This document shows, in pieces, positions 1,665 through 15,870 of a stretch of 20,000 nt of DNA. The stretch's first letter is position 1; every line of letters begins with the position of its first letter. The position numbers were made by a program, and so were the translations under genes. This DNA comes from an uncultured virus (IMG/VR IMGVR_UViG_3300029775_000206) (taxonomy: Duplodnaviria; Heunggongvirae; Uroviricota; Caudoviricetes). The DNA lies in IMG/VR virus record IMGVR_UViG_3300029775_000206, positions 61,900 through 81,899 of that record; one strand, written 5' to 3'. The notes under the pieces were generated by a model. The model worked only from the letters and a program-made list of their open reading frames with translations. It had not been told where the DNA came from and searched no databases.

Positions 1665-1717
1665 ATCGTTAAAATGTATAGCTATCGTTAAAAGGTGTTA
1701 ATTCGTTAAATCGTTTA
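1665..1717. repeat. Clustered direct repeats of ATCGTTAAAA (candidate operator)
   Basis: Exact copies at 1665-1674 and 1684-1693, TTCGTTAAAT at 1702-1711, partial ATCGTTTA at 1710-1717. A further exact copy is at 1410-1419, upstream of fic. Confidence 0.7.
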
Positions 1718-2794
1718 TTGCCTGATGCTTATCCCAAAATGGTCCTTCACAATCTTATTCAACTGATTCTGAATTTCCGAAAACTCCTGATTCAAATCAA
1801 GTGTTTTGACCGATATCTGGTTACCGCTCATCTGATAAACATTGTCGGGGACAAGATCTTCATCCGTCTTTGCATACAGAAGCATCCCGGACACCTTATG
1901 TCCGGTGCCTTGTAACTCAGCTTCCTTATTCTTCACATAGGTGAAGATCTGATACATGTTGCCGGAATGCAGTGTCTTCACATCGAAGTTTGTCTGCAAC
2001 GTCCGCTCATAATACTTGGCATCGATGATAAGTGTCTGGTTCCCATAAGTCAGTGTAATGTCCGTTTGCATAACCGGGAGCAATGCATCATACCCATCAT
2101 CAAGCTGCCACGGAATCTGAAGTGCCCGCGAAGAGAATCCTTTCAGCCGCTGGCCGAATTCCTGTGCATAGTATTCCAGAATGAACTTTTCATAAAGTCT
2201 GCTCATCCGCTGCTCGTCTACGAAACTTGCGAGCCGATACTCACCGCTCTCCGTTGTCAGAAGTGAGCCCTCTATCAGCAGTTGACAAATAGCAAGCAGC
2301 AGTTGATAAGTACGGTTATTCCTCTGGAATCGAATATCCGACCAGCGGATATGTTGTAGTTCGATCTGGTCCACTTCCGAGAAAAGAAGCATTTCTTTTT
2401 TCAGCTCAGCCTTGTACTTTTCCTGCACATCCTTCTGACGCAGAAGAAGGAAAACCGTTGATTTCAGAATCTGATTGAGCAGGTTGTTTTCCGAGAGCTC
2501 GTCATAATCACAGGTTACGATCATCCGATGCTCCAGCCTGTTTTTTATCGTTCCCGGCATGTCAATCTTGCCTCGGACGACCGGCAGGTTTTCTACGCGG
2601 TTGATGTATTCCCGATAGAGTCCCTGCTTCAACTGCAGCCCGATACCTTTTGCCAGAATTGCAGCAAACAGGTTATGAATGTTATCGAACGACTCCTTCT
2701 GGATATCGTCGTAGACGGACTCCTTCAGTGTGGTAAATGCGTAGGACAGCATATAATAGATGTTCTTTATGAATATGCTTTTATCCTTTGTCAT
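1715..2794 (-). CDS. mcrC: McrC-family modification-dependent restriction endonuclease subunit
   Basis: 359 aa. N-terminal IKNIYYMLSYA typical of McrC. PD-(D/E)xK nuclease motif MQTDITL...IIDAKYY followed by YQIFTY. ATGA overlap with the upstream mcrB. Confidence 0.93.
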   Translation of the reverse strand: MTKDKSIFIKNIYYMLSYAFTTLKESVYDDIQKESFDNIHNLFAAILAKGIGLQLKQGLYREYINRVENLPVVRGKIDMPGTIKNRLEHRMIVTCDYDELSENNLLNQILKSTVFLLLRQKDVQEKYKAELKKEMLLFSEVDQIELQHIRWSDIRFQRNNRTYQLLLAICQLLIEGSLLTTESGEYRLASFVDEQRMSRLYEKFILEYYAQEFGQRLKGFSSRALQIPWQLDDGYDALLPVMQTDITLTYGNQTLIIDAKYYERTLQTNFDVKTLHSGNMYQIFTYVKNKEAELQGTGHKVSGMLLYAKTDEDLVPDNVYQMSGNQISVKTLDLNQEFSEIQNQLNKIVKDHFGISIRQ

Positions 2795-5199
2795 TGAAAT
2801 ACTCCGTGCAGGATGTTGTCCCAGCGCTGTACCTTACTGTCGTCATCGAACCAGTATTCCTGCAACATCGGAAGGATGTCGTAATCCACGACCGACTGCA
2901 TCCACTCATCCGTGCAGGTTTCCTTCGTCCTGCCGCAGAAATAGCTGTGGCCAATACAGAAACCTTTTCCGAGCGACTTGTCCCGGCTGATTTCTTCATT
3001 CAGTTCGATGACCTTCTTTATCAGTTCATCGAATGTATCGTTCTCCAGCGTCTGCTGATAGTCGCTGAATCCTTTTGACTCGAATCCCGGATCAATCTCG
3101 AAGAAGCTGAACCGCCGCCGCAGGGCATAGTCGATCATCGCAAGGCTCCGGTCTGCCGTATTCATCATGCCGATGATGTAGAGATTTTCCGGTACAGTAA
3201 AAGGCATGCCATTATAAGCGAGCGTAGCTTTCGTGCCACGGTAATCCTTCTCGATTAACATCAGCAGCTCACCGAAAATCTTACTAAGATTACCTCGGTT
3301 AATCTCGTCAATGATAAAGAAGAACTTCTTGTCCGGTTGATTCTCTGCCTTTTTGCAGAAGCGATAAAACACGCCGTACTTCAATTCAAAACTGTCTCCG
3401 GACGGCTTGTAGCCCATCATGAAATCCTCATAGGAATAATTCTGATGGAACTGCACAAACTCGATGCGGTTATCATCCTTTTTTCCCATGAGAGAATATG
3501 CCAGACGCTTGGCGGCGAATGTCTTACCAACACCCGGTGCACCCTGCAGTATGATGTTCATCTTGTTCAAAAGCACGCCGGAAAGCCTGTCGTATTTCTC
3601 CTCGGTCATATAGACCTCAGACAGAAAAGCATCCTTTGTGTAAGGCGGAATCTTAACTTCGGTATTGAGAGGATTCTCATCACGAATCATGTCCATGATG
3701 AATTCGTATTCGCCCTTGGTAAGCTTGAAGAAGCTGCCGTTTGGATTCTGGAAGAACTCCATTTTTTCAAGCTCTGGGCATTCCTTCAGTGTTTGGTAAT
3801 CAATCGGATTTGCGAGAGATTCTGTCTTTTCAAAATAGATTTTCTGTCCATCATTTGCCGCACTGACCTTTACAAGAGCAACGACCTGCTTGACAGGATT
3901 GGATTCATATCCGATGACAAGATCGCCCGCCTTTGCATCGATGAAATTCTGAAACACACGGCGCTTATTTCCGTTTTCGTTAAAGAGCGTGTAGTCCTGA
4001 ACTTCACCAACCTGCAGATCCGAAAAGCTCCAGATCTTCGGGTTAGCATTCAGCCACCAGTATCCATGTTCTTCCTCGCCGTCTTCCGACTTTGCGTAAA
4101 GATCGACATCCTTCCAATCGACCTGATCCAGAGCTTCAGAAAGTTCGCCCCGGAGTTTCCAGATATAGCCGCCATCCTCATCTTTTGTAGCATGCCTGCC
4201 AACATAAAGGACCGGCCACCATCTGGAATTATCTGAATCACGTGGCATGACCGGACAGCCAGTCTTCTCGACCACTCGTTTTGCCAGTCCGACTGACCCA
4301 GCATTATAAAAGTTCTTACTTTCTCCGTATTTCACCGCAAGCTGAGTACAGGTGGCCTCACCGCCATAGTCCTTGAACCGCCTCATGATTTCAAGGCTGC
4401 TTTGTGTGAATACATCTTTATCATTTAAGAGAGCAATCCATTCCTGAACCGTTATTCCAGGCGAATATTCTTCCTGAGAAGGGAACCACTCGTTGTCGGA
4501 GGAAACGCTATCTCCTTTTTTTGAATACTCCCTTGAAATGTAAAATCCAACATCGAAGGTCAGCGTTTTCAGTTCCGGATCAGGATAGCAATCTGCGGTC
4601 AACTGGCTTCGGAATAAGTTCACCAGTTCTGTGTCCTGCTTCAGTTCTTCACAGATTTCATCATAGAACTTGAAGAAGTTTCGAATGTTGTCGGCGTAGG
4701 CTCCTTTTTTGAATCGGTAATCACTCTCAAGTTCATCAGATACCGATTTGACTTCACCAAATTTATAAACATAGTACTTGTCCGGATAGCGTAACCACAG
4801 GTATACACTAATCGCATTTTCGTATTGATAATGCTGTGCAGCTCCATTCCCATATTTTTCGAGTAAGATGGATGATTTCATTTTGAAGCTGTTGATGCGC
4901 TCATAAACGTCCTTGCTTTCATCAAATAACTCGATATACATCGCCCGGACTTCTTCCGGTGCAGTCTTGGCAAAGCCGATGATCATTCGTGCCGGGAAGT
5001 TATTCATCGAGGCCAGCAGGTTGTATGTCTTGGAAAGAGAACGGCTGAGCATATCCGCGAAATCCTCCGCTTTGACATCCCAGTTATCCTGAAAGCATTT
5101 AACAGCTTCCCATTTGTATTTTTCGTCTTTCCAGTGCTTTGGAAGGAAGTCCTTCTTGTACTGGATGAGTACTTCTTTCAAACGAAACTTATCAAACAT
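2791..5199 (-). CDS. mcrB: McrB-family AAA+ GTPase with extended N-terminus including an EVE-like domain
   Basis: 802 aa. Walker A GAPGVGKT, VQFHQNYSYEDF, Walker B IIDEINRGN, McrB signature MNTADRS, ALRRRF. EVE-like segment YWWLNANPKIWSF...GDLVIGYES. RBS GGAGG upstream. Confidence 0.93.
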   Translation of the reverse strand: MFDKFRLKEVLIQYKKDFLPKHWKDEKYKWEAVKCFQDNWDVKAEDFADMLSRSLSKTYNLLASMNNFPARMIIGFAKTAPEEVRAMYIELFDESKDVYERINSFKMKSSILLEKYGNGAAQHYQYENAISVYLWLRYPDKYYVYKFGEVKSVSDELESDYRFKKGAYADNIRNFFKFYDEICEELKQDTELVNLFRSQLTADCYPDPELKTLTFDVGFYISREYSKKGDSVSSDNEWFPSQEEYSPGITVQEWIALLNDKDVFTQSSLEIMRRFKDYGGEATCTQLAVKYGESKNFYNAGSVGLAKRVVEKTGCPVMPRDSDNSRWWPVLYVGRHATKDEDGGYIWKLRGELSEALDQVDWKDVDLYAKSEDGEEEHGYWWLNANPKIWSFSDLQVGEVQDYTLFNENGNKRRVFQNFIDAKAGDLVIGYESNPVKQVVALVKVSAANDGQKIYFEKTESLANPIDYQTLKECPELEKMEFFQNPNGSFFKLTKGEYEFIMDMIRDENPLNTEVKIPPYTKDAFLSEVYMTEEKYDRLSGVLLNKMNIILQGAPGVGKTFAAKRLAYSLMGKKDDNRIEFVQFHQNYSYEDFMMGYKPSGDSFELKYGVFYRFCKKAENQPDKKFFFIIDEINRGNLSKIFGELLMLIEKDYRGTKATLAYNGMPFTVPENLYIIGMMNTADRSLAMIDYALRRRFSFFEIDPGFESKGFSDYQQTLENDTFDELIKKVIELNEEISRDKSLGKGFCIGHSYFCGRTKETCTDEWMQSVVDYDILPMLQEYWFDDDSKVQRWDNILHGVFQ

Positions 5200-5240: not shown

Positions 5241-8165
5241 TCACCATTCCTTAACCGTTAGGAACCCTTTCTCGATTGCATCCGGGAACAAGAATGTCCT
5301 ATTTGCCACGTCAAAAGAGACCATGACTTTGCCGGATTTGATTCCGGTTACTTTTCCTTCGCCATACTTCTTGTGTGTCACAATAGTTCCGACGCGGAAC
5401 TTAGACAGGTCGACTTCCTTAAACTTCGGCTCTGCCTTATACGGCGTCGAACCCTCGGCCACATGAGAGCCTCTCTGCAGTTCCGGAACAGGATATCCCT
5501 GGTTGATTGGCACCACCTTCGGCTTAGCTGGCTCTGGCTTCGGCCTTAATATCGGTTGCTCAATGATAACGGTCTTCTTGAACGGATTCTCCTGCATGGA
5601 CGCTGTCTGAGCTGATGCCATGTCCTTGTATTCGTCCTTGGAAATAACAGTACTGAACAAGCCGACATCCTCGTCCTCAGCATGTTTACTGATTCCGGTG
5701 TATTCCAGCGAAGCGTCTTCATATCGTTTGAAGTTGTAAACTGCACTGTTCATGAGCGAGTCATTGAATATCCCAAGTGATACGAGCAGCTCAAAATCCT
5801 CGACAGTTAGACCAGTGACCTTCTTGAACAAGCCCGGCTCAAACTGAGTGATGACATCCTTCAGGCTGTATTCACGGAAATCGGTCAGGTACATGAAGAT
5901 CGGGATTCTCGTCGCAAACTTGATGAGTTTTTCCTGTATCTCTTTACGCTTGCTCTTGTATTCTTTCTCCTCCTGCGACAGCTCCTTCTTTTCCTTTGGA
6001 GTCATGTCGTCACCTTTTTCGGCTTTAGTCTTCTTGACTGCGTTCGACTTGTTTATGATCGTCTCAATGTCCTTATTCAGGCTTCGGAAGCCTTCAATGT
6101 TCATGATTGCTTTCATAGCATCATCGTTATCGAGAAGACGCTGCAGTGTCTCGTTATCCACATTGACAAGCAGAGCAGATTCCCAGCGCCTTGCGAGAAG
6201 CGTCGCGGAGGTACCGGCCATAGTGATATCCAGAATGTCAGAAGCCGAAACCGCCGTCATTGTGCTGCCATCGAAAGCAAGGACTGGCAGAAAGTGAATG
6301 AAGTCTGCGACCTTTTTCTCCGGATTTGACTCTGAAATATTCAGTCGGCAGCTGTAATCAGAAATCTGGCGCAGAGCACGATCGAGCGCAAAGTCGAAGA
6401 TGTAGCAGTTTTCCTTCATGATTTCTTCGGTACCGTCTTCCTTCTTTACCGTCCAAGGAGACTGAACACGGAAAGCTGCCTGAAAATATGTCTCGGGAGA
6501 TGACAGATTGCGAAGCATGAAAATTCCCGTCCACGGCTTAATCGTCACACCTGTTGTCAGCTTTCCGCAGGAAAGCGTGATGGTTTTTGTCTCAAGCGGC
6601 GGGTCCATAGATTCACGGACGGGTTTGAGAGCAGCAAGACCCACGCCTGCTGCCGTTCCGGCGCAAACATTGACGGTATAGTCGTGATAGAAAACATTCT
6701 GCTTCTCCGCAAGCAGGTTTGCCATTGCGTAGCAGGAGGCGACGTTCGGCAGAAACCACAGCGTGTGATTCAGAACGGAAAGCATTCTGGCATCAGAATA
6801 TGGCATAACCGGCTTGGCATTCTGACCAAGCTTCAAGTCGTCAACCGAGGAAGGTAAATAAGCTCCACGAATAAGGGTGAGCCACTTCTGGACATAGTCC
6901 TTGTAGACGAACTGCGCCGTCTCCGGGTGTCCTTCTACCTCCGGTTTTGCTGCGAAGAATACATTCAAGTCAAATTCGTTAAAGTCCTCGTTATAGGCAA
7001 TGCGGCGAATTTCATCCGGGATACGATATGTCATCAGGACGATCTGCGGCATGGACGCATAGGGATTCGGACCTTTGCTGTCATCCCATTCTTCCTTCGC
7101 CTTCTGCTCATCGGAATATGTCCACGAGAAGATCTGATCCTCCATGAACTCACCGGTGTTCAGAGCGCGGAACGGTGTGCCGGACAGGAAGAGATAATAC
7201 TTCGTCGTGATCGGTAAGAAGTCTTCGTTGATGGCGTTATCTGCCTCGTTCTTCTTATACTTATCGATGTCCAGCTCGTCGTAGCTGTCCTCGTCCTCTT
7301 TTTCAAACAGGTGCTTTGCATTTTCACGCCAGGCGCCAAAATGGTACTCGTCAAATATGACAAGATCCCAGTTCGTGGTATGTACCCATTCGTTCTTGGC
7401 CTTGATGCCTCCAGCAGCATTCGTGCCGAGGAAGTCTTGGAAGGAGCCAAAGCAGACGATAGGTCGCGACTGATCCAGATCCTGCGGACGAATGCCTGTT
7501 TCCTGAGAGACCTCGCGGGAGTAGAACTGCCAGCCTTCGAAGTCCATGTGGGAAAGCAGGTCTGTTTCCCACGACTCCTCAACCGCTGGTTTGAACGTGA
7601 GAATCAGGACACGTTTCATATCCATCGTTTTCGCGAGCTCATAGGATGTGAATGTCTTTCCAAAGCGCATCTTCGCGTTCCACAGGAATTTCGCCGTATG
7701 ATTCGGATTACGCTTGGATTCAGATTCAAAGTAGGCCTTTGTCATTCGGACGGCGCGTGCCTGCTCCGGGCGCATACGGAAGTTCTGCGTCCTGTTCTCA
7801 AGATTTGCGGAGGAAGTCTTGACAGCGAGGATGGCAGCCTTCACGTCATTGACAGTGCATTTGTACCACTCGCTTTTCTTGCCGTCCGGAGACTTCTGCG
7901 CATGGAAGCCGTGTGCTTCCAGCATTCGGTGAACATCATGGTCCATGAAGATTGCTCCGTCAGCATTGAGAGCGGATTCGACGTATTCAACCTTGTACGA
8001 CTGACCCGGAGTAAGCGTCGGATAGTGCTCGTGCATACGCACTTCGATTGGCCTGTCTGTATAGCCGACCTTCAAGCAGCCCGGAAAACGTGTATCGGAA
8101 TAGGCGTAGATGATCGGCTTGACTTCTGTTTTCGGATGAACATATTGATCAAAAATATCAGCCAT
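5241..8165 (-). CDS. Restriction-type SF2 (DExH) helicase/ATPase with N-terminal GIY-YIG/T5orf172-like nuclease domain
   Basis: 974 aa. N-terminal IIYAY...LKVGYT...R (GIY-YIG-like). Motif I AKMRFGKT, motif II IFDEYH, motif III LSGTP, motif VI-like YFQAAFRVQ. TGATG overlap with the upstream methyltransferase gene. Confidence 0.85.
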   Translation of the reverse strand: MADIFDQYVHPKTEVKPIIYAYSDTRFPGCLKVGYTDRPIEVRMHEHYPTLTPGQSYKVEYVESALNADGAIFMDHDVHRMLEAHGFHAQKSPDGKKSEWYKCTVNDVKAAILAVKTSSANLENRTQNFRMRPEQARAVRMTKAYFESESKRNPNHTAKFLWNAKMRFGKTFTSYELAKTMDMKRVLILTFKPAVEESWETDLLSHMDFEGWQFYSREVSQETGIRPQDLDQSRPIVCFGSFQDFLGTNAAGGIKAKNEWVHTTNWDLVIFDEYHFGAWRENAKHLFEKEDEDSYDELDIDKYKKNEADNAINEDFLPITTKYYLFLSGTPFRALNTGEFMEDQIFSWTYSDEQKAKEEWDDSKGPNPYASMPQIVLMTYRIPDEIRRIAYNEDFNEFDLNVFFAAKPEVEGHPETAQFVYKDYVQKWLTLIRGAYLPSSVDDLKLGQNAKPVMPYSDARMLSVLNHTLWFLPNVASCYAMANLLAEKQNVFYHDYTVNVCAGTAAGVGLAALKPVRESMDPPLETKTITLSCGKLTTGVTIKPWTGIFMLRNLSSPETYFQAAFRVQSPWTVKKEDGTEEIMKENCYIFDFALDRALRQISDYSCRLNISESNPEKKVADFIHFLPVLAFDGSTMTAVSASDILDITMAGTSATLLARRWESALLVNVDNETLQRLLDNDDAMKAIMNIEGFRSLNKDIETIINKSNAVKKTKAEKGDDMTPKEKKELSQEEKEYKSKRKEIQEKLIKFATRIPIFMYLTDFREYSLKDVITQFEPGLFKKVTGLTVEDFELLVSLGIFNDSLMNSAVYNFKRYEDASLEYTGISKHAEDEDVGLFSTVISKDEYKDMASAQTASMQENPFKKTVIIEQPILRPKPEPAKPKVVPINQGYPVPELQRGSHVAEGSTPYKAEPKFKEVDLSKFRVGTIVTHKKYGEGKVTGIKSGKVMVSFDVANRTFLFPDAIEKGFLTVKEW

Positions 8166-9724
8166 CAGTCTTCACCTCCCTCACCGGGCATCGGCAAAAT
8201 AGCATCTTCAATATAAGTTTGCTCAGCACCCGACAAATTATATTTTTCATACAATTCTTTGTCGGACCAAGGTCTACTAAAGTCTTGTACAGGCACATAT
8301 GAATAAGATGACTTTGACATATTCATAGATGCCAGCATTTGCATCATAAGAAATCGAGCAAATTTTGTATTTAAATACGATATTAGGTTGTCAGCTTGCT
8401 CCTCATCTTCATATACTCCTGCGACGAGATAACTCTCCGTGCAAGCAGAATTTGGAGGTAGCTTTTGAACCACAGAAAGGACACGCATCTGACCGTTCTT
8501 ATCGGGAACACCTGCGTGCTCAAAAGAGACCTTTGAGACAATGACCTTCCACTTATTCAAAATATTCTTGCCCTGTGTAATGCAAGCATGTCTGATTTTC
8601 CCAAGGCCTTTACTGCTCCTAAGTGTCACGTCTCCATCCTCATCAAAAGGAGTGGCCGAATCTAACCCAAATGGTCTTCTTGATAGCACTTGATCAGCCA
8701 TCGTTTTTTCTTTGAAAGCTTTCACTTTACGGACAATTGCCACAGCTTCATTATTGCGAATAAAGGTTGGAAATTCATTCAAGTTCCGAACCATCGACGT
8801 TTCTATACCACCTTTATTAACGTTTACGATGGTACAGTCATCATTGCTTGAATCTCTTGACCATAAGAAATAGCTGATGCCGCCAGGGATATCTACGCCT
8901 GGAAAGCAATCCTTTGAGTCTGCATAATCAACTAACTTTACGAGCCTTTTGTCTTGGAGCATCTCCTGACGATATGAATCAAGGCCCTTGCCGCCATTTA
9001 ACCAACGAGATGGCGTGATCATCGTCATGTACCTTGGATTGAGCTTCTTTGCTTGTTGCACAAATTTCTGATAAATAGGTGACGCACTCTTGCCAGCACC
9101 ACCACCTCCATCACTGAGTTGATATGGAGGATTACTAATTATCACATCAAACTTCATATTAAATATTTCCTCCGGGTGTAACGTATGTATAAATTCGTAT
9201 GCGTGATTCTCCATTCCTTCACGTTTGATATCATTAAGCTCGTTTCCATAACTTATCCCGCAGTAAATGCAATGTCCTTTAGAATCATTTCGGTCCCATT
9301 TGTGTTTGACTTTGTGAAAAAGTACATTCCCCTGTATATCATCAAACTGCGTAATTGAAAACGAACTGTTCGGATACTTCGAGCAGTAAACCGACCTTCT
9401 GGACAGCAGCGAAGTCAGCTCGGTGATGGCAATGCCATAGAGCTGATTCTTGAAAATCCAGTCGCAGCGCTCCTGCAGATTCGGGATTTTGTCCGCAAGC
9501 CCGGCAATCAGACGCTTCGCGATTTCGCGGAGGAACACTCCGGATTTGCAGGCTGGATCGAGGAACTTCGTATTCGGATCGCGGAATAGCTCCTGCGGCA
9601 GCATGTCGAGCATCTTGTTGGCGACATCTGGCGGAGTGAAGACCTCATCGTTCGACAGGTCAGCGAGGCAGGACAGCACGTCCGGTTTATATACATTGGT
9701 AAATAAATCAGGATTCAGTGGCAT
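8165..9724 (-). CDS. N6-adenine DNA methyltransferase (Eco57I-like, gamma order) with C-terminal target-recognition region
   Basis: 519 aa. DEVFTP (motif X), FLDPACKSGVFL (motif I), VIISNPPYQ (motif IV), ITPSRW. Confidence 0.9.
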   Translation of the reverse strand: MPLNPDLFTNVYKPDVLSCLADLSNDEVFTPPDVANKMLDMLPQELFRDPNTKFLDPACKSGVFLREIAKRLIAGLADKIPNLQERCDWIFKNQLYGIAITELTSLLSRRSVYCSKYPNSSFSITQFDDIQGNVLFHKVKHKWDRNDSKGHCIYCGISYGNELNDIKREGMENHAYEFIHTLHPEEIFNMKFDVIISNPPYQLSDGGGGAGKSASPIYQKFVQQAKKLNPRYMTMITPSRWLNGGKGLDSYRQEMLQDKRLVKLVDYADSKDCFPGVDIPGGISYFLWSRDSSNDDCTIVNVNKGGIETSMVRNLNEFPTFIRNNEAVAIVRKVKAFKEKTMADQVLSRRPFGLDSATPFDEDGDVTLRSSKGLGKIRHACITQGKNILNKWKVIVSKVSFEHAGVPDKNGQMRVLSVVQKLPPNSACTESYLVAGVYEDEEQADNLISYLNTKFARFLMMQMLASMNMSKSSYSYVPVQDFSRPWSDKELYEKYNLSGAEQTYIEDAILPMPGEGGED

Positions 9725-10412
9725 ATTGTACCTCCCAGTAATCTACGGATGGGAACTCTCTGATCGGTGCCGGAGTCCAACCATGTGTCTCGGCGTCGTA
9801 ATCCCAGCCTTGTTTCTTTTTTTCAGCCAGTACATCCATAAAACTCATCTGGCCATCGTCTTCAACCTTTTCTGGTTCCTCATCGCGCATCAAAGCATCA
9901 AGCGTAAAATCCCTGCGTCGCATTCGATACCCTACTGTGAAGTCCCACTGAGAGAAGATTATCGGAGTACCGTCATTTTTCATAAGCGTCAAAGCATCAC
10001 CACACAGAACGTTCTTTTGAAGAATGTATTTTGCGGCAGACCTTATTTCATCACTGGATTCCTTCTTACACTGCTTTGTGTAAGCTTCATCCCATATTCG
10101 AAAGAGCCGCTCCCGGCATTCCTTCACGTTATCTTCCTGAATGTCGATTCCATAGATGCTGGTGAGAGCGAGAAACGCATTCTTCGTATACTCTGAATTA
10201 TTTCTCTTATATTGTCGCTTAACCCTCGCGAGCTTCCGTCGCAGAATTTCCGCGAGGAAGTTTCCATCGCCGCAGGCGGGCTCCAGAAACCGGCTTTCAA
10301 TCCGGTCGGTTTCGCTTTTCACGAGATCGAGCATGGCATTGACTTCACGCTCGTTTGTGAACACTTCGCCGTGCTCCGCGACACGTTCCTTTGATTTTAT
10401 TTGTCTTGGCAT
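9708..10412 (-). CDS. Short methyltransferase-like protein (SAM-binding half only)
   Basis: 234 aa. GEVFT (motif X), FLEPACGDGNFL (motif I), IYGIDI, NVLCGDAL. No NPPY/DPPY catalytic motif. Overlaps the next gene by 17 nt. Confidence 0.85.
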   Translation of the reverse strand: MPRQIKSKERVAEHGEVFTNEREVNAMLDLVKSETDRIESRFLEPACGDGNFLAEILRRKLARVKRQYKRNNSEYTKNAFLALTSIYGIDIQEDNVKECRERLFRIWDEAYTKQCKKESSDEIRSAAKYILQKNVLCGDALTLMKNDGTPIIFSQWDFTVGYRMRRRDFTLDALMRDEEPEKVEDDGQMSFMDVLAEKKKQGWDYDAETHGWTPAPIREFPSVDYWEVQYATES

Positions 10413-10431: not shown

Positions 10432-12747
10432 TCATTCTTTTTTCTTGACTGCCGCCGTCATCATGTCATAGTGCTGGTTCTGATGCATGACATAGAAAAT
10501 CTGCTTGAATACCCGCTTGTACATGTCTACGTTGTCATAATCCTCAACCACAAGGTTCAAGCCGTCCGTGATGCCGTTCGGATTATTGATATAGGCCAGC
10601 ATCGTAGAGGCGAGCTCGTAGTCGGTCATATCCGGCTGACTACCCGGAACTTCTTTTATAAAGTTTTTCCGGTTCTCCGGATCTTCGAGCAGCTGCTCCC
10701 GGAGGCTGGTGCCCTCGTATCCACAAAGCTGAAGGAAATACGACTCGAGAATCCTGCGCATTACATTCAGCGCCGGAATAACAGAATCCGCATCACGCAG
10801 TTCTTCCCAAAGTGCCGCATATGAGCTCTGCACCGGGTTATAATTCTCAAACTCGGTCTTAGCTTTGTCCTTTGGTCTTTCACAAATATGTACGCGCGAG
10901 ACATTGGCAGTCTTGCGGATCATATAGAAGGTGGTGCAATCGTAATAACCGACCTGCTGGTAGGTTATCTCTCTATGGAAGTACACATTGTGTGTCAGGA
11001 CAAAAATCTGCTTGATATAGTTTCCCGGAACCTTTGGATTTTCCCAATGCGTATTATTTCGGCAAACATTGATCATTTCTCGTACGATGGCACTTACAAG
11101 GAAGAGTGCCGTGCTATCCATGCTGGAAACCGGATCGTCGATGGCGACAATTTTGTCCTTCTTCTCTTCGCTGTTTTGGCTCCCGCGAACAAGTTGATAG
11201 AAATACAGGAAGGCGATGAAGTTTCGTTCCCCTTCGCTTAGGTTTTCTGCAACTTCTCCGGTGTCGCGGATGACCTCGTAATGATTCTTGTTGTTCTCGC
11301 ATTCACGAATGTGAAAGCCCTGAAATCCCGAATCCTTCAAAATCTTGTTGATACCATCGACTGCCGCTTGCGTATTAACGACCTGAAGGTTCAGCGCGGA
11401 TATTTCACTTGTCAGGGTATTGATGGCCTTCTTGAGGCTCCGCCCCTTATCTTCGAGTTTCTTAGCAGCGTCTTCCTGTGCTTTCTTTTCATCAAGGTAG
11501 CCCTTGATCTCATCCTTCAGCAGGAAAGCGAAATACTCGATAACTTCTTTCTTGCACTTTGCTTTACTGGTTCTTTTGGCATTCACAACATCATTATTCG
11601 CCTTGATCTTCTTGTTGATGGCATCGATGAGATCGCCGATTTCGAGCAAAAGGGAATCTGTATCTTCTAGCGATACGATCTTTGATGGCTCTTTGACCTT
11701 TTCGGCAAGACGGCCCGAATTCAAATCAATTTTGCTTTTCAGGAGCGCGAGCTTAGACTTGTATTCCTCGAGCTCGTCATCCAGTCCCGGCACCGTCTCA
11801 CCCAGATTTCCTTCAAGTTTCCGAATAATCGCTTGCGTTTCACGATCATATGTACTCTGAAATTCTCCGAGCTGGGAAACGTTCTCCTGATACTGCGCAT
11901 CAAAGCATTTCTGAATATCCTCCTCAAAAGTGCTTGGCAGCTTCTGCTGGCAGAACGGGCACTTTCCATCTGAGCCAGAAACAAAATGAGTATGCCCTTG
12001 TCGTACCCAGTCAGTTGCTTTTATCTTTCTTACAAACTTGGCGAATTCCGTATTTGCGCTACTGACGACAACTGTAGCCAGCAGATCCTTTCCCGGCAGC
12101 TTTCCATATGTAACAGAGCTGTCAGCTCTCTGGAATTCGGAATAAGTTCTGGAATTCGCGTCAAAAGCAACATCGCATAGTCTTTTTAATTCAGCCGGAT
12201 CGTGATTAGTAGGATTGGTCTCGGCGAGAATTGCATCTACAAACCCTCTTTTCTGTTTCTTACCCTCGAGGGCCTTATCAAATGCGGCTCGCTCTTGTAT
12301 TGTTCGCTTAAAACAATCATCCTGAAAAGTAGAGAGCAAAGTGCCAAGGCCATCTTTTTTAGTGTGCCATTCTTCCTGTGCCTTCGTAAAATCCCCGTTG
12401 AGCTTGTCCTTTTCGGCGGATTTTGCGTCTATCTGGCTTTGTACACTCTTGTTGATTTTATTGAAGATAAATACTCCCGGAAGGTCTCCATAATTTGAAA
12501 AATTGTCTTCAACGAAATCACGGTTATACACCAGCAGATCGTAGTCGCTTGGAATTCGTCCGTCGGCCCATTCAACGCTGTCGTTGTCGCCATTATTCTC
12601 ACTGATGGCATACGCTATGGACGACTTCCCAGCACCATTATTTCCGTAAAAGAAATTAATAAAGGAAAGTTTTTCAATAGGCTCATTATGGAAGGTTGCT
12701 CTGTCAACCGTGATTTTTGTTATCAGTGACGGATATTTTTTGCTCAT
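10432..12747 (-). CDS. RloC/AAA_13-like Rad50-type ABC ATPase with zinc hook and C-terminal HEPN-like domain
   Basis: Walker A YGNNGAGKS, Q-loop-like YNRDFV, zinc hook CPFC within coiled coils, signature LSEGE, Walker B/D-loop IDDPVSSMD, H-loop LTHN, HEPN-like NVMRRILESYF. Start reassigned to the ATG at 12747 (MSKKYP, 771 aa) because AGGAGG lies just upstream and the longer start overlaps the HTH gene. Confidence 0.85.
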   Translation of the reverse strand: MSKKYPSLITKITVDRATFHNEPIEKLSFINFFYGNNGAGKSSIAYAISENNGDNDSVEWADGRIPSDYDLLVYNRDFVEDNFSNYGDLPGVFIFNKINKSVQSQIDAKSAEKDKLNGDFTKAQEEWHTKKDGLGTLLSTFQDDCFKRTIQERAAFDKALEGKKQKRGFVDAILAETNPTNHDPAELKRLCDVAFDANSRTYSEFQRADSSVTYGKLPGKDLLATVVVSSANTEFAKFVRKIKATDWVRQGHTHFVSGSDGKCPFCQQKLPSTFEEDIQKCFDAQYQENVSQLGEFQSTYDRETQAIIRKLEGNLGETVPGLDDELEEYKSKLALLKSKIDLNSGRLAEKVKEPSKIVSLEDTDSLLLEIGDLIDAINKKIKANNDVVNAKRTSKAKCKKEVIEYFAFLLKDEIKGYLDEKKAQEDAAKKLEDKGRSLKKAINTLTSEISALNLQVVNTQAAVDGINKILKDSGFQGFHIRECENNKNHYEVIRDTGEVAENLSEGERNFIAFLYFYQLVRGSQNSEEKKDKIVAIDDPVSSMDSTALFLVSAIVREMINVCRNNTHWENPKVPGNYIKQIFVLTHNVYFHREITYQQVGYYDCTTFYMIRKTANVSRVHICERPKDKAKTEFENYNPVQSSYAALWEELRDADSVIPALNVMRRILESYFLQLCGYEGTSLREQLLEDPENRKNFIKEVPGSQPDMTDYELASTMLAYINNPNGITDGLNLVVEDYDNVDMYKRVFKQIFYVMHQNQHYDMMTAAVKKKE

Positions 12748-12764
12748 ATGAAGTCCTCCTGCAT

Positions 12765-12965
12765 TTACTCTTTTATCTTGCCTTCCCGAACCCATTCATC
12801 TACTTCGGAAATTTTAAATTTATAGCGCTTGCCAGCTCTGTAATAAGGAAGCTTGCCTTCTTTAATCCATGTTCTTACCGTGTCTTGGCTGACGCTCAGA
12901 TGATCCGCGATATCTTCCAAGTTCACCCATTTTTCGACGTTCATTTCTTCATATTCTCGGCTCAT
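12765..12965 (-). CDS. Excisionase/MerR-like helix-turn-helix DNA-binding protein (HTH_17 type)
   Basis: 66 aa. WVNLEDIADHLSVSQDTVRTWIKEGKLP...GKRYKFKISEVDEW is a typical Xis-like wHTH. RBS GGAGGT upstream. Confidence 0.9.
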   Translation of the reverse strand: MSREYEEMNVEKWVNLEDIADHLSVSQDTVRTWIKEGKLPYYRAGKRYKFKISEVDEWVREGKIKE

Positions 12966-13002: not shown

Positions 13003-13659
13003 CTAAAGCAGCCGTATCTTACAGCCGTTATTATTAAGTGCTTCTATTACATCAACTTTCTTTATTGCCCAGTGCGTTTCATCCAGCTCGTTTCTGAAAT
13101 CTGTACCGCCGATGCCGAAAGCATCCTTACGTTCATTCAGAATCTGCTGGGCGAATTTTCTGTACTTAAAAAAGTAAATCCAGATGCCATCTTCCTTTAC
13201 TTGCACATCTCGCACGATTCCGAAAAAAGCCCTGTGCCGATCATCAGTACGAGCAAACTGATGATTTGTGCTCGCGAATATAGCCGGGAAACTCTTCACG
13301 ATGTTGATGCACTCTTCGGTAAGATAGGCAAGTTCCCACAGATCCTCCGGCGTACATCTGTCGACCGCGATAGCGTGGTCCTTAGGAACCACGAAATATT
13401 TTCCCTTGAACATCTCATCTGCGATAACGAACAGGTTGTAATAATTCAAATCCAAATCAATCTGTGCTTCCGGTGTATCATCATCGTCATCCTCGTCGTT
13501 GATCGGCAGAAAAACAGATGTCAGCTTTCTTTCTTCATAATGCTGAACGAATCCAATCTGCTTTCCCTTACCGGACTGTTCCATGTGGACATCAATATTC
13601 TGTGGTGACATTTCTGACGGAAGCTGAGGAGAAACCGGCTGGAGCTCTTTATTATCCAT
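13003..13659 (-). CDS. Hypothetical protein (218 aa): N-terminal QIG motif, acidic linker, globular domain ending ELDETHWAIKKVD
   Basis: Long ORF in an operon. RBS GAGGAGG lies inside the 3' end of the upstream gene, with a 4-nt gap to the upstream stop codon. Confidence 0.8.
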   Translation of the reverse strand: MDNKELQPVSPQLPSEMSPQNIDVHMEQSGKGKQIGFVQHYEERKLTSVFLPINDEDDDDDTPEAQIDLDLNYYNLFVIADEMFKGKYFVVPKDHAIAVDRCTPEDLWELAYLTEECINIVKSFPAIFASTNHQFARTDDRHRAFFGIVRDVQVKEDGIWIYFFKYRKFAQQILNERKDAFGIGGTDFRNELDETHWAIKKVDVIEALNNNGCKIRLL

Positions 13660-13663
13660 GCAT

Positions 13664-14584
13664 TCAGTCCTCCTCGTCTTTTTCGTAGTAATTCTCTACA
13701 AATCCAATCTGTGTACCTTTTCCGGATTGTTCAAAGTGGAAATTGAAAACTTTTGGCTGGTTTATTGTCTGTTCCAAGCTCTGCTGGGCACTCTGCTCAT
13801 CTGGCTCTGGAATTGCATCAATGACTTCTGACTCTGGAGAGCCGCTGCCATCTTTTTCATCTGCCTCCTTAGGAATATCAAAATCAGATGGATAGCAGTA
13901 TGTGAGTTTCAACTCACGGTTGCTGTTTTCACCTATCGCAGCTTCATAAGGACGTTCATTATTTCCTTCCGTGGGCGGACACCATTCTTTATAAGTCTCT
14001 TGCCCTATGGAGTTTTTCTTTACCTCGACGATGCAGTAATGCCAAAGTCCAAGCAGAAATGATTCCAGGCAAATAGTTGACTGCCCCAGTAGTTCATCTT
14101 TGGTAATAGTTTCACCTGATTTTTCAGCGTAGAACTTTGTATCACCATCAATTGTTCCGTCTGCATCCAACAGCTCTAGTAATGCTTTCACAAGAAAAAC
14201 ATCCTTATGGGTGTCAGTTCTCAAGTCCAAATATTTATTTGTAAACTCTGTCATCTGAGCCAAGCATCCCTGATAATCGTTCTTTATTCGTTCATCAAAA
14301 GATTTCTTTGCTGCCATATCACCCAAAAGAAACTGCCGCCATCCCCAGCCACGACACGCTTTGAAATCAGATGTTCCATCACGCATTGATTTGTTTTCTA
14401 AGCTCGTTGGCTCTTCGATATCTGGGGTAACTATCCTTGCCAAAGACATAAGTGTCTCTGGCTCAGTTATGCCACTTTTCTTTCCAGTATACATTTCTCC
14501 CTTAGAAGGCATCTGTTTGCGTGCATAGGATATCAATATGAAAAAAGTTCCTCCACAAAGTTTCCATCTATTCCTGTTATCCAT
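13664..14584 (-). CDS. Hypothetical protein (306 aa): globular N-terminal region, acidic disordered linker, C-terminal QIG motif
   Basis: Long ORF with RBS GAGGA upstream. First gene downstream of the promoter at 14763-14791. Confidence 0.8.
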   Translation of the reverse strand: MDNRNRWKLCGGTFFILISYARKQMPSKGEMYTGKKSGITEPETLMSLARIVTPDIEEPTSLENKSMRDGTSDFKACRGWGWRQFLLGDMAAKKSFDERIKNDYQGCLAQMTEFTNKYLDLRTDTHKDVFLVKALLELLDADGTIDGDTKFYAEKSGETITKDELLGQSTICLESFLLGLWHYCIVEVKKNSIGQETYKEWCPPTEGNNERPYEAAIGENSNRELKLTYCYPSDFDIPKEADEKDGSGSPESEVIDAIPEPDEQSAQQSLEQTINQPKVFNFHFEQSGKGTQIGFVENYYEKDEED

Positions 14585-14762: not shown

Positions 14763-14791
14763 ATTATACCACATGACAATACAACTCTCAA
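14763..14791 (-). promoter_or_regulatory. Sigma-A/70-type promoter for the leftward defence operon
   Basis: On the minus strand: TTGAGA (14791-14786), 17-bp spacer, TATAAT (14768-14763), with extended -10 TGnTATAAT. Confidence 0.8.
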
Positions 14792-14810: not shown

Positions 14811-14917
14811 GAAATTTTTGCTCTTGTCAGCTTCACTTTCACAGACGTTCACCCGGTGCACAGAGGTGGCTCGAACGGATGTGAAGGTCACAACTGAATA
14901 GAGAAACCAGCCTACGA

Positions 14918-14982
14918 GCGTGGCTGGCCGAACGAAACGAGTTGAATTCCCGTTCCGTCTGGCCTGTCACGCCTTCTTTTTT
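14918..14982 (+). terminator. Long imperfect hairpin plus U-tract in the leader of the sigma-like gene (attenuator-like)
   Basis: GCGTGGCTGGCC-GAACG can pair with CGTTC...GGCCTGTCACGC, followed by CTTCTTTTTT. Confidence 0.5.
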
Positions 14983-15024
14983 GTGCGGCCTCCGGTTCGG
15001 GAGAAGCGAACGGAGGTATCGCAC

Positions 15025-15525
15025 ATGAAAAACAATGTCAACCAGAGTAAACGCATCTACGACAAGTTCACCCGCACCTGGTACGAGGTCCCCGAGGACC
15101 AATATCGCGAATATGACCGGAACCGCACTGCGCTTCGGAAGCGTATGCAGTATCGCGGCGAATGCTTCTGCCCGCGCAGCAAATGGTGGCTGTGCGACGG
15201 CAACTGCCTCGACTGCGAGTTCCACAACAACACGACCGTCTCTCTTGACGATCCGCTGCCGGACGGCGAGGGAACGCTCGCCGACTACGTTCCGGACAAC
15301 GCTCCTCTCATTGAAGAGGTGCTTTCCGAGAAGGCGGAGCTGGATCAGCTGTTCTCCCGCCTGCAGGAGTTGATGCCGGAAGCTAAGCAGATCGGCGAGC
15401 TGCGCGAGAAAGGTCTCTCCGATGAAGCCATCGCAAAAATCATCGGCATCAAACGGACGACCTTCCGGTCCAGACTTGATAAGGCCCAAGAGACACTCTC
15501 TAAGGAATTCCCTGACTGGTTCTGA
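15025..15525 (+). CDS. Phage sigma-70 region-4 / ECF-like transcriptional regulator with Cys-rich putative zinc-binding motif
   Basis: Start reassigned to the ATG at 15025 (RBS GGAGGT, 166 aa). CFCP..WWLCDGNCLDCEF cluster, VSLD, and C-terminal HTH GLSDEAIAKIIGIKRTTFRSRLDKA. Confidence 0.8.
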   Translation: MKNNVNQSKRIYDKFTRTWYEVPEDQYREYDRNRTALRKRMQYRGECFCPRSKWWLCDGNCLDCEFHNNTTVSLDDPLPDGEGTLADYVPDNAPLIEEVLSEKAELDQLFSRLQELMPEAKQIGELREKGLSDEAIAKIIGIKRTTFRSRLDKAQETLSKEFPDWF

Positions 15526-15532
15526 TGCTCTG

Positions 15533-15567
15533 CTCCGGCTGCCATATGTGGTGGCCGGAGTTTTTTT
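15533..15567 (+). terminator. Rho-independent terminator after the sigma-like gene
   Basis: Stem CTCCGGCTGCCA / TGGTGGCCGGAG with a 4-nt loop, followed by T7. Confidence 0.85.
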
Positions 15568-15666
15568 CAAAATTTCTTCTTCATCCTTCGTCAAAACGGT
15601 CTGCCCGCCTCCAGTGGGAAGTGTAAGGAGCACGAAAACAAGATGCTCCGGATTGGAGGTAAAGCG

Positions 15667-15870
15667 ATGAATACGACACGCAACAGAAGTCCAGCGGACG
15701 CAGAAACCATCGCAGTTCTTTACGCGATAAGCCAAGTATCCGCAAGACTGGCAAGGAACCTGTCTGTCCTTGCCGCAGGTCAATCCGAGGAAGGAGGAAA
15801 AGGAAATGTCAAAAATGGCAGAAATGGATCAGACCATCAGAGAGCTCCGCGATGCAGCCGCTGCTATTAA
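15667..15870 (+). CDS. Small hypothetical phage protein (67 aa)
   Basis: RBS GGAGGT before the ATG at 15667. Helical core IAVLYAISQVSARLARNL. The tail overlaps the next gene. Confidence 0.55.
   Translation: MNTTRNRSPADAETIAVLYAISQVSARLARNLSVLAAGQSEEGGKGNVKNGRNGSDHQRAPRCSRCY

Follow-up and report, generated by a model that had tools for sequence, protein, structure and literature searches.

Proteins A and B of a phage-borne operon: a candidate effector-sensor pair sharing a co-varying motif of the amyloid-signaling type

Introduction

Bacterial amyloid signaling has so far been described, in the parts of the literature available to us, for the Bell/NLR pairs of multicellular Actinobacteria and Cyanobacteria and for the Bab/Agp pair of Escherichia coli. 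The Bell/NLR pairs are reported from multicellular Actinobacteria, Cyanobacteria, and some Archaea, and the accessible text of the same source gives NLR-like architectures as rare or absent in Firmicutes, with Bell domains lacking there (bioRxiv 10.1101/2020.01.06.895854). Bab/Agp is an antiphage pair of E. coli ECOR25 that carries the BASS11 motif (Ibarlosa et al., bioRxiv 10.1101/2024.11.07.622273); this motif of ~20 residues forms fibrils and is needed for abortive infection (bioRxiv 10.1101/2024.11.07.622273). Here, we describe two adjacent genes, encoding proteins that we call A and B, in a 20,000-nucleotide stretch of DNA from an uncultured virus (IMG/VR IMGVR_UViG_3300029775_000206). 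This whole stretch, hereafter the window, covers positions 61900-81899, the final 20 kb, of a virus record of 81,899 bp with a CheckV completeness of 100%.

The original prediction for this locus proposed that a RHIM-like motif at the C-terminus of A and at the N-terminus of B joins the two proteins at the head of a defense operon. Judged from the sequences of the pair and of its relatives, A-B is on balance probably an effector/sensor module joined by a homotypic motif of the amyloid-signaling type and placed at the head of a phage-borne defense operon.

Results

Proteins A and B have a matched motif

The genes of A (13664..14584, 306 aa) and B (13003..13659, 218 aa) lie on the minus strand. 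The C-terminus of A and the N-terminal region of B contain 19-residue stretches (13682-13738 and 13531-13587, respectively) in which 14 of the 19 residues are identical, whereas the codons differ at 7 of these 14 residues and nucleotide identity is 42/57. A BLASTP comparison of the two proteins returned one significant segment of 26 residues, with 15 identical and 20 positive positions (E = 2e-7, for a single comparison), and no second region of similarity, the next best segment reaching only E = 6.6. Similarly, a six-frame scan of the window revealed no third copy of the motif (cross-score of 83 for the pair vs 37 for the next best stretch, which lies in a frame not called as a gene). The similarity between the two motifs is far beyond chance. 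The open reading frames (ORFs), coordinates, and 14/19 identity agree with those of the original prediction, and its observations that the proteins have no further similarity and that half of the identical residues use different codons were likewise borne out.

The motif of A comprises residues 277-302 (13679..13756, minus strand), as supported by BLASTP, AlphaFold2 (AF2), and co-variation; it is predicted to form a beta-hairpin or beta-arch and is followed by DEED. That of B comprises residues 19-44 (13528..13605, minus strand), according to BLASTP, AF2, and conservation among homologues. The cores of these motifs are GTQIG in A and GKQIG in B. All 19 aligned B homologues, which reach down to 33% identity, keep the B motif, and Q28, G30, G32, and Y41 are invariant in it. 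In addition, homologous pairs elsewhere repeat the match between the A and B tags, with different sequences.

Both motifs lie outside the predicted folds

The AF2 model of A was built from a 43-sequence alignment (mean predicted local distance difference test score, or pLDDT, of 80.6) and that of B from a 23-sequence alignment (mean pLDDT of 78.6). Protein A begins with an unnamed all-alpha domain (residues 1-237; 13874..14584), which is confident in AF2 and which we read as the effector. It is followed by an acidic linker predicted to be disordered (residues 238-276; 13757..13873; pLDDT <50; net charge -9) and then by the motif, modeled as strands 278-287 and 291-301 with a pLDDT of ~50. In B, the motif (strands 24-29 and 33-38, low pLDDT) precedes an acidic linker with a D/E run (residues 45-70; 13450..13527; pLDDT 51-70; net charge -9) and a conserved alpha/beta domain (residues 71-218; 13006..13449), likely of PUA-like fold and read as a sensor or adaptor; the confident part of this domain in AF2 spans from about residue 66 to 218. 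All of these segments are encoded on the minus strand. Both motifs are thus placed by the models outside the folded domains and behind acidic linkers, neither of them forming an integral strand of a fold, and the linkers that the original prediction had noticed next to the motifs are indeed acidic.

The A-B pair is conserved

We analyzed 160 A-family loci, 80 from species genomes and 80 from IMG/VR, which were the top-scoring ones among 158 and 130 confirmed hits, respectively. The A ORF was present in 153 of these loci, which together with the window gave 154 sequences. ORFs were called mechanically with a minimum of 50 aa, and some small helix-turn-helix (HTH) genes were possibly missed; the B domain was called by a hidden Markov model from the B alignment. 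In 143 of the 154 sequences, A is immediately followed by a B-domain gene, so that the partners adjoin in nearly all of them, as expected if the original prediction is right; 3 sequences have no room for it and 8 are other cases. More specifically, a NACHT+SNaCT14 protein (782 and 781 aa) is found downstream of A in place of B in loci L050 and L065, and its N-terminus matches the A tail with scores of 46 and 51, respectively. A NACHT partner in this position occurs only in these two loci and in a copy at a contig end, L049, which has the same A as L050. Among the remaining cases, A and NACHT form one 890-aa chain in L074 and L156, A has another C-terminal extension in L075, the B-domain ORF overlaps A in another frame in L048, and in L078 the A ORF is incomplete at its N-terminus (246 aa) and no B ORF occurs in the 953 nt available downstream.

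A search seeded with B among metagenome contigs (best 80 of 227 confirmed hits) revealed A directly upstream in 63 of the 80 loci; the remainder comprise 12 loci without room, 2 lacking a B ORF, and 3 others, which are either fragments or L206, with an opposite-strand recombinase-like ORF upstream. In L206 (52-1458, minus strand), the orphan B gene has an intact N-terminal motif, and the ORF at the position of A resembles a serine recombinase, as judged from its translation only. Because A lies upstream in 63 of these 80 loci, B appears to be specific to A. A role for B as a general sensor for many effectors was rejected on the same count, with only two proteins (P0291 and P0293) having the B domain behind a different N-terminal domain.

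The record labels of the family loci are mainly Lachnospiraceae, Oscillospiraceae, Erysipelotrichaceae, Eubacterium, Dethiobacter, Desulfosporosinus, and their viruses. A few family members come from metagenome-assembled genomes labeled Bacteroidota, Verrucomicrobiota, and others.

The two motifs co-vary

The 143 pairs were dereplicated to 50, and their motifs were compared by local-alignment scores with 20000 permutations. Cognate A tails and B N-termini scored 57.0 on average vs 31.7 for non-cognate combinations, and none of the 20000 permutations reached the observed score sum; the co-variation within loci that the original prediction implied is therefore present. The cognate partner ranked first in 16 of the 50 pairs, among the top 3 in 34, and among the top 5 in 38. 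Clustering of the motifs gave 8 classes on the A side and 12 on the B side, with an adjusted Rand index of 0.82 and a distance-matrix correlation of 0.83. Within-locus A/B similarity was greater than between-locus A/A similarity in 1458 of 2450 comparisons (60%) and greater than between-locus B/B similarity in 1717 of 2450 (70%). Since the match within a locus often beats the match between orthologues, the data suggest concerted change, not shared descent alone. The sequences strongly indicate that the A and B motifs change together across ~8 sequence classes.

The breadth of these classes may be seen in L023, in which the A tail QQNGDGNTVIPNYGTININ faces the B N-terminus QQTGNDNVMIPNYGTVNIN; in L056, with FNFNAPIHTFNNQVGTVVNNY in the A tail and NNFNAPIDTFVAHTDAVQNNY in the B N-terminus; and in the L079 pair, NVHYGTGDIYSDIETLTIN and NVHTGSGDIYSNIGSVTVN. 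At the 562 positions that are identical between partners, we found 22% N, 15% G, and 10% Q, i.e., 47% together. Adjacency, co-variation, and the position of the motif outside the folds were the computational tests that could have gone against the original prediction, and none did so.

The RHIM label fared less well. RHIM, PP, and BASS3 have the core G-phi-Q-phi-G (Dyrka et al. 2020, bioRxiv 10.1101/2020.01.06.895854), whereas the second position of the core in the window is T or K, which is not hydrophobic, and neither motif matched a RHIM or amyloid profile in Pfam at E <= 10. A G-x-Q-I-G core is found only in the class of the window and in one related class (NTQIG), and 6 of the 8 classes are without it. 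Given this G-T/K-Q-I-G core, its absence from 6 of 8 classes, and the lack of a profile match, membership in RHIM/BASS3 is not supported.

The A domain is shared with NTPase-type proteins

Neither A nor B has a family match in Pfam, PADLOC, PHROGs, or NCBIfam, and permissive Pfam scans (30 A domains, 23 B proteins) yielded scattered single-member noise only. No fold match for A was found in PDB Foldseek, VIA-wide, or BFVD searches, and the ESM Atlas gave nothing usable for the A domain. Among 1.84 billion proteins, a profile of the A domain matched 1180 representatives of 50%-identity clusters (E <= 1e-3), and in the full-length matches listed the domain starts at or near residue 1. Among the best 150 representatives, 74 are 271-335 aa long, nearly all with a tail rich in N, Q, and G, 13 are single-chain A-B fusions, and 17 exceed 700 aa. 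The motif is absent from both fusion sequences that were read (P0130 and P0145, of the 13).

A Pfam scan of 55 long A relatives uncovered a STAND NTPase in 21 of them. These are fusions to NACHT in 19 (13 of which also have SNaCT14), to NB-ARC in 1, and to nSTAND3/AAA_16 in 1. The same 55 proteins include fusions to CTD6 of ABC-3C (n = 2), to CTD11 of ABC-3C (n = 1), and to FHA (n = 2), a Response_reg match in 1 (E = 4e-4; 21 bits, under the 30.2-bit cut-off), and 28 proteins with no family; P0094 is a further CTD6 fusion. Because the A domain occupies the effector position of STAND NTPases and of Lamassu-type effector proteins, we read it, by the logic of architecture, as an effector. The original prediction had found that neither protein looked like a known effector; the architectures of the A domain, with its NACHT and NB-ARC fusions, make A recognizable as one.

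Several relatives have arrangements of their own. P0156, P0220, P0229, P0253, and others, as well as L074 (6980-9652), combine the A domain with a short NACHT and SNaCT14. The bNACHT01-like clade 14 is given in the accessible text of its source as an exception without effector fusions (Kibby et al. 2022), and the A-NACHT-SNaCT14 proteins may be effector-bearing members of this clade or neighbors to it. Among P0174, P0234, and P0159, two contain FHA and one has a weak Response_reg-like region below the cut-off, which hints at phospho-dependent control in some A relatives. P0133, P0288, P0289, and L182 have an extra helical insert of ~190 residues after the A domain and before the motif or B domain, and P0288 retains a single motif-like stretch in its fused A-insert-B chain. 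In P0144 (403 aa), the first ~100 residues are of the A family and are joined to a Fic domain; this protein may be a chimera from recombination within such islands.

The B domain is likely PUA-like

Foldseek comparison of the B domain pointed to YTH, McrB-N, Lon-N, and PH1033 at E values of 0.02-0.2 over the whole domain, and two independent fold comparisons point to one superfamily. The domain therefore likely has a PUA-like (EVE/YTH/ASCH) fold, the match being a moderate one. No EVE, YTH, or ASCH Pfam match was obtained among 23 B members at E <= 10, the PDB sequence profile search for B returned spidroins only (E = 0.28-0.85), and the ESM Atlas gave unnamed clusters only. In addition, B of the window has no NTPase domain in Pfam, PADLOC, PHROGs, or NCBIfam.

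The pair heads an operon in a phage-carried island

On the minus strand, A is followed by B after 4 nt and B by a gene for an HTH protein after 37 nt, and the HTH gene overlaps that of an ATPase. A near-consensus promoter-like site (14763..14791, minus strand) lies ~180 nt upstream of gene A; it consists of TTGAGA, a 17-nt spacer, and TATAAT with a TG extension (11/12 matches). Such sites are not enriched in number between 12600 and 15000 (2 found vs a shuffle mean of 4.5). Given the promoter-like site upstream (14791-14763) and the tight gene spacing, the A-B pair heads an operon, in line with the original prediction.

The HTH_17/excisionase-type protein (66 aa; 12765..12965, minus strand) matches Pfam HTH_17 (8.8e-15) and PADLOC mad1 (8.7e-12), and its score against NCBIfam MADS1 is 55.8 bits, under the cut-off of 80. 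The ATPase is a 787-aa AAA_13 ABC-type protein (10432..12795, minus strand) that matches Pfam AAA_13 (2.1e-127), the PADLOC candidate PDC-S06 (4.2e-210), and LmuB (5.3e-16). PDC-S06 is described as a single-gene candidate in a Streptococcus thermophilus survey (PMC11514479). An HTH homologue follows B within 400 nt in 97 of the 136 loci with room, and an AAA_13 homologue starts no more than 2.5 kb downstream of B in 94 of the 108 loci with at least 3 kb of room. The 14 loci without AAA_13 still have matched motif pairs (e.g., scores of 85 in L001, 65 in L053, and 55 in L019); in L019 and L036, which lack the ATPase, SNF2+DUF4391 or HsdM/HsdS are found instead. In the NACHT forms, the HTH gene follows and there is no AAA_13. 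Because matched pairs occur without the ATPase and NACHT forms have the HTH gene without AAA_13, the A-B pair forms a module separable from the HTH-ATPase-restriction block, and the two usually occur together.

The MAD1-like, sub-threshold HTH_17 protein of 63-66 aa follows both B-type and NACHT-type partners (L050, L065, and L074), and it precedes varied restriction-type modules, such as HsdM/HsdS, SNF2+DUF4391, Dam+AlwI, and McrBC. This protein may serve as a shared regulator or mark a module boundary. We rejected a MADS system, since the matches to mad1, mad2, and mad3 are weak and sub-threshold. A canonical Lamassu/ABC-3C operon with B as its C-terminal domain (CTD) or middle component was also rejected, as no CTD or middle-component profile matched B and the ATPase matches PDC-S06 far better than LmuB.

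The minus-strand order is A, B, HTH_17, AAA_13 ATPase, a methyltransferase in two ORFs, a T5orf172+ResIII helicase, an EVE-AAA_5 McrB-like protein with McrC, and Fic. These genes form a phage-carried defense island of ~14 kb with 43-51% G+C vs 51-61% in the adjoining plus-strand replication module, which begins near 14.9 kb (DUF2800, an Enc34-type single-stranded DNA-binding protein, and a family A polymerase). The methyltransferase comprises an N-terminal part (234 aa; 9708..10412) and an Eco57I-type methyltransferase (519 aa; 8165..9724), and the helicase has 974 aa (5241..8165), all on the minus strand. A restriction-modification enzyme is thus apparently split over three ORFs (234, 519, and 974 aa) at 5241-10412 (minus strand), and its 519- and 974-aa products match consecutive parts of one 1359-position PADLOC type IIG profile. 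Since the 234+511/519 ORF pair recurs in L002, L003, L082, L083, and L087, the split is a conserved arrangement and no fresh frameshift. The McrB-like protein (EVE + AAA_5, 802 aa) and McrC (359 aa) occupy 1715-5199, and the Fic-domain protein (372 aa) occupies 244-1362, again on the minus strand. An EVE-McrBC block likewise follows the A-B-ATPase module in L079, and an EVE-AAA_5 McrB-like protein is found there in L045. Finally, a 314-aa ORF in the high-GC region (14839-15783, minus strand) overlaps plus-strand ORFs of 201 and 120 aa and is probably not a gene.

Discussion

Our analysis directly revealed the motif pair, its co-variation, the adjacency of the two genes, and the placement of the motif beyond the folded domains, together with the fused and NACHT-partnered alternatives by which A is marked as an effector. 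We infer that the partners bind each other physically through the motif, that the motif is of amyloid nature, and that B has a ligand and A a biochemical activity. At rest, A and B would be soluble, with their tags unassembled. Infection by a competing phage would bring B molecules together, possibly as B binds an infection-associated nucleic acid via its PUA-like domain and possibly with the help of the downstream AAA_13 ATPase. The N-terminal tags of clustered B would then stack into an in-register cross-beta nucleus, which the C-terminal tag of A would join, and the A domains, now concentrated, would be switched on and the cell stopped or killed by abortive infection. In-register parallel stacking needs like sequences, as is established for HET-s and RHIM. 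The same sequence in both partners would fit such stacking here by analogy, and in-register cross-beta stacking seems the most economical mode because the sequence is kept alike on both sides, with Asn, Gln, and Gly at shared positions.

Several points weigh against this interpretation. The cognate partner is top-ranked in only 16 of the 50 pairs because related loci have motif classes in common, and the co-variation seen in the sequences accordingly rests on ~8 class switches and not on 50 independent events. The loci are top-scoring subsets (best 80 of 158, 130, and 227), and the collections overlap. Pfam contains RHIM and HET-s/sigma models, and no match to its amyloid/RHIM profiles was obtained at E <= 10 for the 2 window peptides and 12 relatives, in a search in which matches that are both short and weak are removed by the HMMER filters. 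In the monomer models, the motifs reach a pLDDT of only ~50, and the motif class of the window is more charged (E, K) than the other classes. With respect to A, there are many invariant polar residues (C, H, K, D, and R), with C10, K75, C77, C172, H182, and C202 among the invariant positions, and no membrane-like segment was found (KD19 maximum of 1.37); by sequence, A therefore does not look like a pore former of the Bell/HeLo type. In addition, B may not itself be the sensor but instead serve the AAA_13 ATPase as an adaptor.

The most serious rival to polymerization is a non-amyloid tether, in which the two hairpins would pair into a small, stable beta-sheet and hold A and B in a constitutive 1:1 or 2:2 complex, equivalent to a split form of the fused A-B protein, with B regulating A allosterically in a sensor- or antitoxin-like manner. 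We regard this as unlikely, though to be taken seriously. Single-chain A-B fusions without the motif (P0130 and P0145) indicate that permanent linkage is compatible with function, which also counts against templating; AF2 predicts simple hairpins, and the motif of the window has several charged residues. However, a heterodimeric sheet needs no like sequences, yet the N, G, and Q positions are kept like-for-like over ~8 class changes, and these three residues make up 47% of the shared positions. The same layout also recurs with NACHT partners, whose documented mode is oligomerization-driven templating (Dyrka et al. 2020).

Considerably less probable is a reading in which the two motifs dock onto a shared third protein (the AAA_13 ATPase, for instance, or a chaperone or protease of the host) instead of onto each other. 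An AAA_13 homologue does lie downstream in 94 of the 108 loci with room, and A relatives with Lamassu/ABC-3C C-terminal domains suggest that the family includes ATPase-docked effectors. Nevertheless, matched pairs persist where AAA_13 is absent, both in L001, L019, and L053 (scores of 85, 55, and 65) and in the NACHT-partnered loci; the window has no third motif copy, and class switching in step would demand a third co-evolving surface. That the similarity is a functionless by-product of recent local duplication, gene conversion, or low-complexity composition we consider highly improbable: short and compositionally biased as the motifs are, the codons differ at 7 of the 14 identical residues, no aligned B homologue lacks the motif, even at 33% identity, the pairing persists with co-variation over 143 pairs, and the fused forms drop the motif.

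Returning to the effector/sensor module with its homotypic motif, we would tentatively go further, in a proposal that is rather less probable than the module itself. The family may be a large, mostly phage- and island-borne one of Bacillota, in which at least 8 distinct co-evolving amyloid "address tags" wire one promiscuous cell-death effector domain to interchangeable sensors, i.e., a PUA-like reader, NACHT NTPases, and Lamassu-type ATPase adaptors. In the version of the window, the PUA-like reader might cluster on a nucleic acid associated with infection, possibly one with modified bases, and thereby nucleate the amyloid that fires the effector.

If the module works in this way, amyloid signaling would reach the Bacillota of gut and rumen, together with their viruses, and would include a new effector domain (1180 representatives) and a new small sensor domain; this would be its first description in unicellular Firmicutes and in phage genomes. 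The ~8 co-varying motif classes, a natural set of orthogonal templating tags, would offer a series for testing the specificity and orthogonality of templating, and short, orthogonal, self-templating tags could be useful as switches in synthetic biology. The A domain would also provide a handle on an uncharacterized effector that occurs on NACHT, NB-ARC, and Lamassu-type proteins as well.

Comparison with known systems

Literature searches that covered sources other than subscription journals and the bioRxiv supplements with BASS motif lists found no published description of the A-B family. An NLR-independent amyloid pair as such is not new, contrary to the original prediction, since Bab/Agp has already been described (bioRxiv 10.1101/2024.11.07.622273). 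Classically, the sensor of such a motif pair is defined as an NLR (NACHT or NB-ARC), a definition that Bab/Agp has already loosened. The independence from NLRs holds in part: B of the window has no NTPase domain, but fusions of the A domain to NACHT or NB-ARC are frequent, and NACHT replaces B in L050 and L065.

Lamassu and ABC-3C are two names for equivalent systems, built from an effector with a C-terminal domain, an SMC-like ABC ATPase, and a middle component. A-B resembles them in that some A relatives have Pfam CTD6 or CTD11 and an ABC-type ATPase lies downstream of the pair. It differs in its ATPase, which is of the PDC-S06/AAA_13 type (4.2e-210) and matches LmuB weakly (5.3e-16); no Pfam CTD or middle component was found in A, B, or the HTH protein of the window, CTD6 and CTD11 being confined to other A relatives. 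Effector-associated and Death-like adaptors are folded helical domains that couple effector and sensor homotypically. Such domains are described for NTPase conflict systems (Kibby et al. 2022), and A-B is similar to them in using homotypic modules to couple an effector with a sensor, whereas its coupler is a putative beta motif of ~24 residues rich in N, Q, and G.

The fungal HET-S/NWD2 system, as outlined in the introductions of the papers cited here, likewise has a C-terminal prion-forming motif on the effector that is templated by an N-terminal copy on the adjacent sensor, as well as fused alternatives; kingdom, domains, and motifs are different. Closer to A-B are the Bell/NLR pairs with BASS1-10, which have a matched motif at the effector C-terminus and the NLR N-terminus, adjacent genes, and several unrelated motif families (bioRxiv 10.1101/2020.01.06.895854), a layout that L050 and L065 reproduce with a NACHT partner. 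In contrast to these pairs, the A-B family is found mainly in Bacillota and viruses, its usual partner is not an NLR, and its effector does not appear to be Bell: A has no Pfam match, no fold match, and no membrane-like segment, and it has a nearly invariant hydrophobic N-terminal helix of its own (residues 9-17).

Bab/Agp, as far as its preprint describes it, is similar in its adjacent genes, in the position of the motif at the effector C-terminus and the sensor N-terminus, in its non-NLR sensor, and in a motif length of ~20-25 residues, and it is found in a prophage defense island, as A-B is in a phage-borne one. Bab, however, is a helical, Bell-related domain of 109 aa with a conserved membrane-targeting motif at its N-terminus, whereas the domain of A comprises 237 residues, has an unmatched fold, and lacks this motif. 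The motif sequences of the two systems are also different, A-B is usually followed by HTH and AAA_13 genes, and A-B is known here from its sequence. Overall, A-B has the layout described for amyloid signaling, i.e., a tagged effector and an adjacent tagged sensor, several tag families, fused alternatives, and some NLR partners, and the integrated, motif-free architectures that accompany amyloid signaling pairs are present as A-NACHT and A-B fusions. By analogy, we read A-B as working like BASS-type signaling, with an effector domain, a sensor domain, motif classes, and a host range that differ from those of the published systems found.

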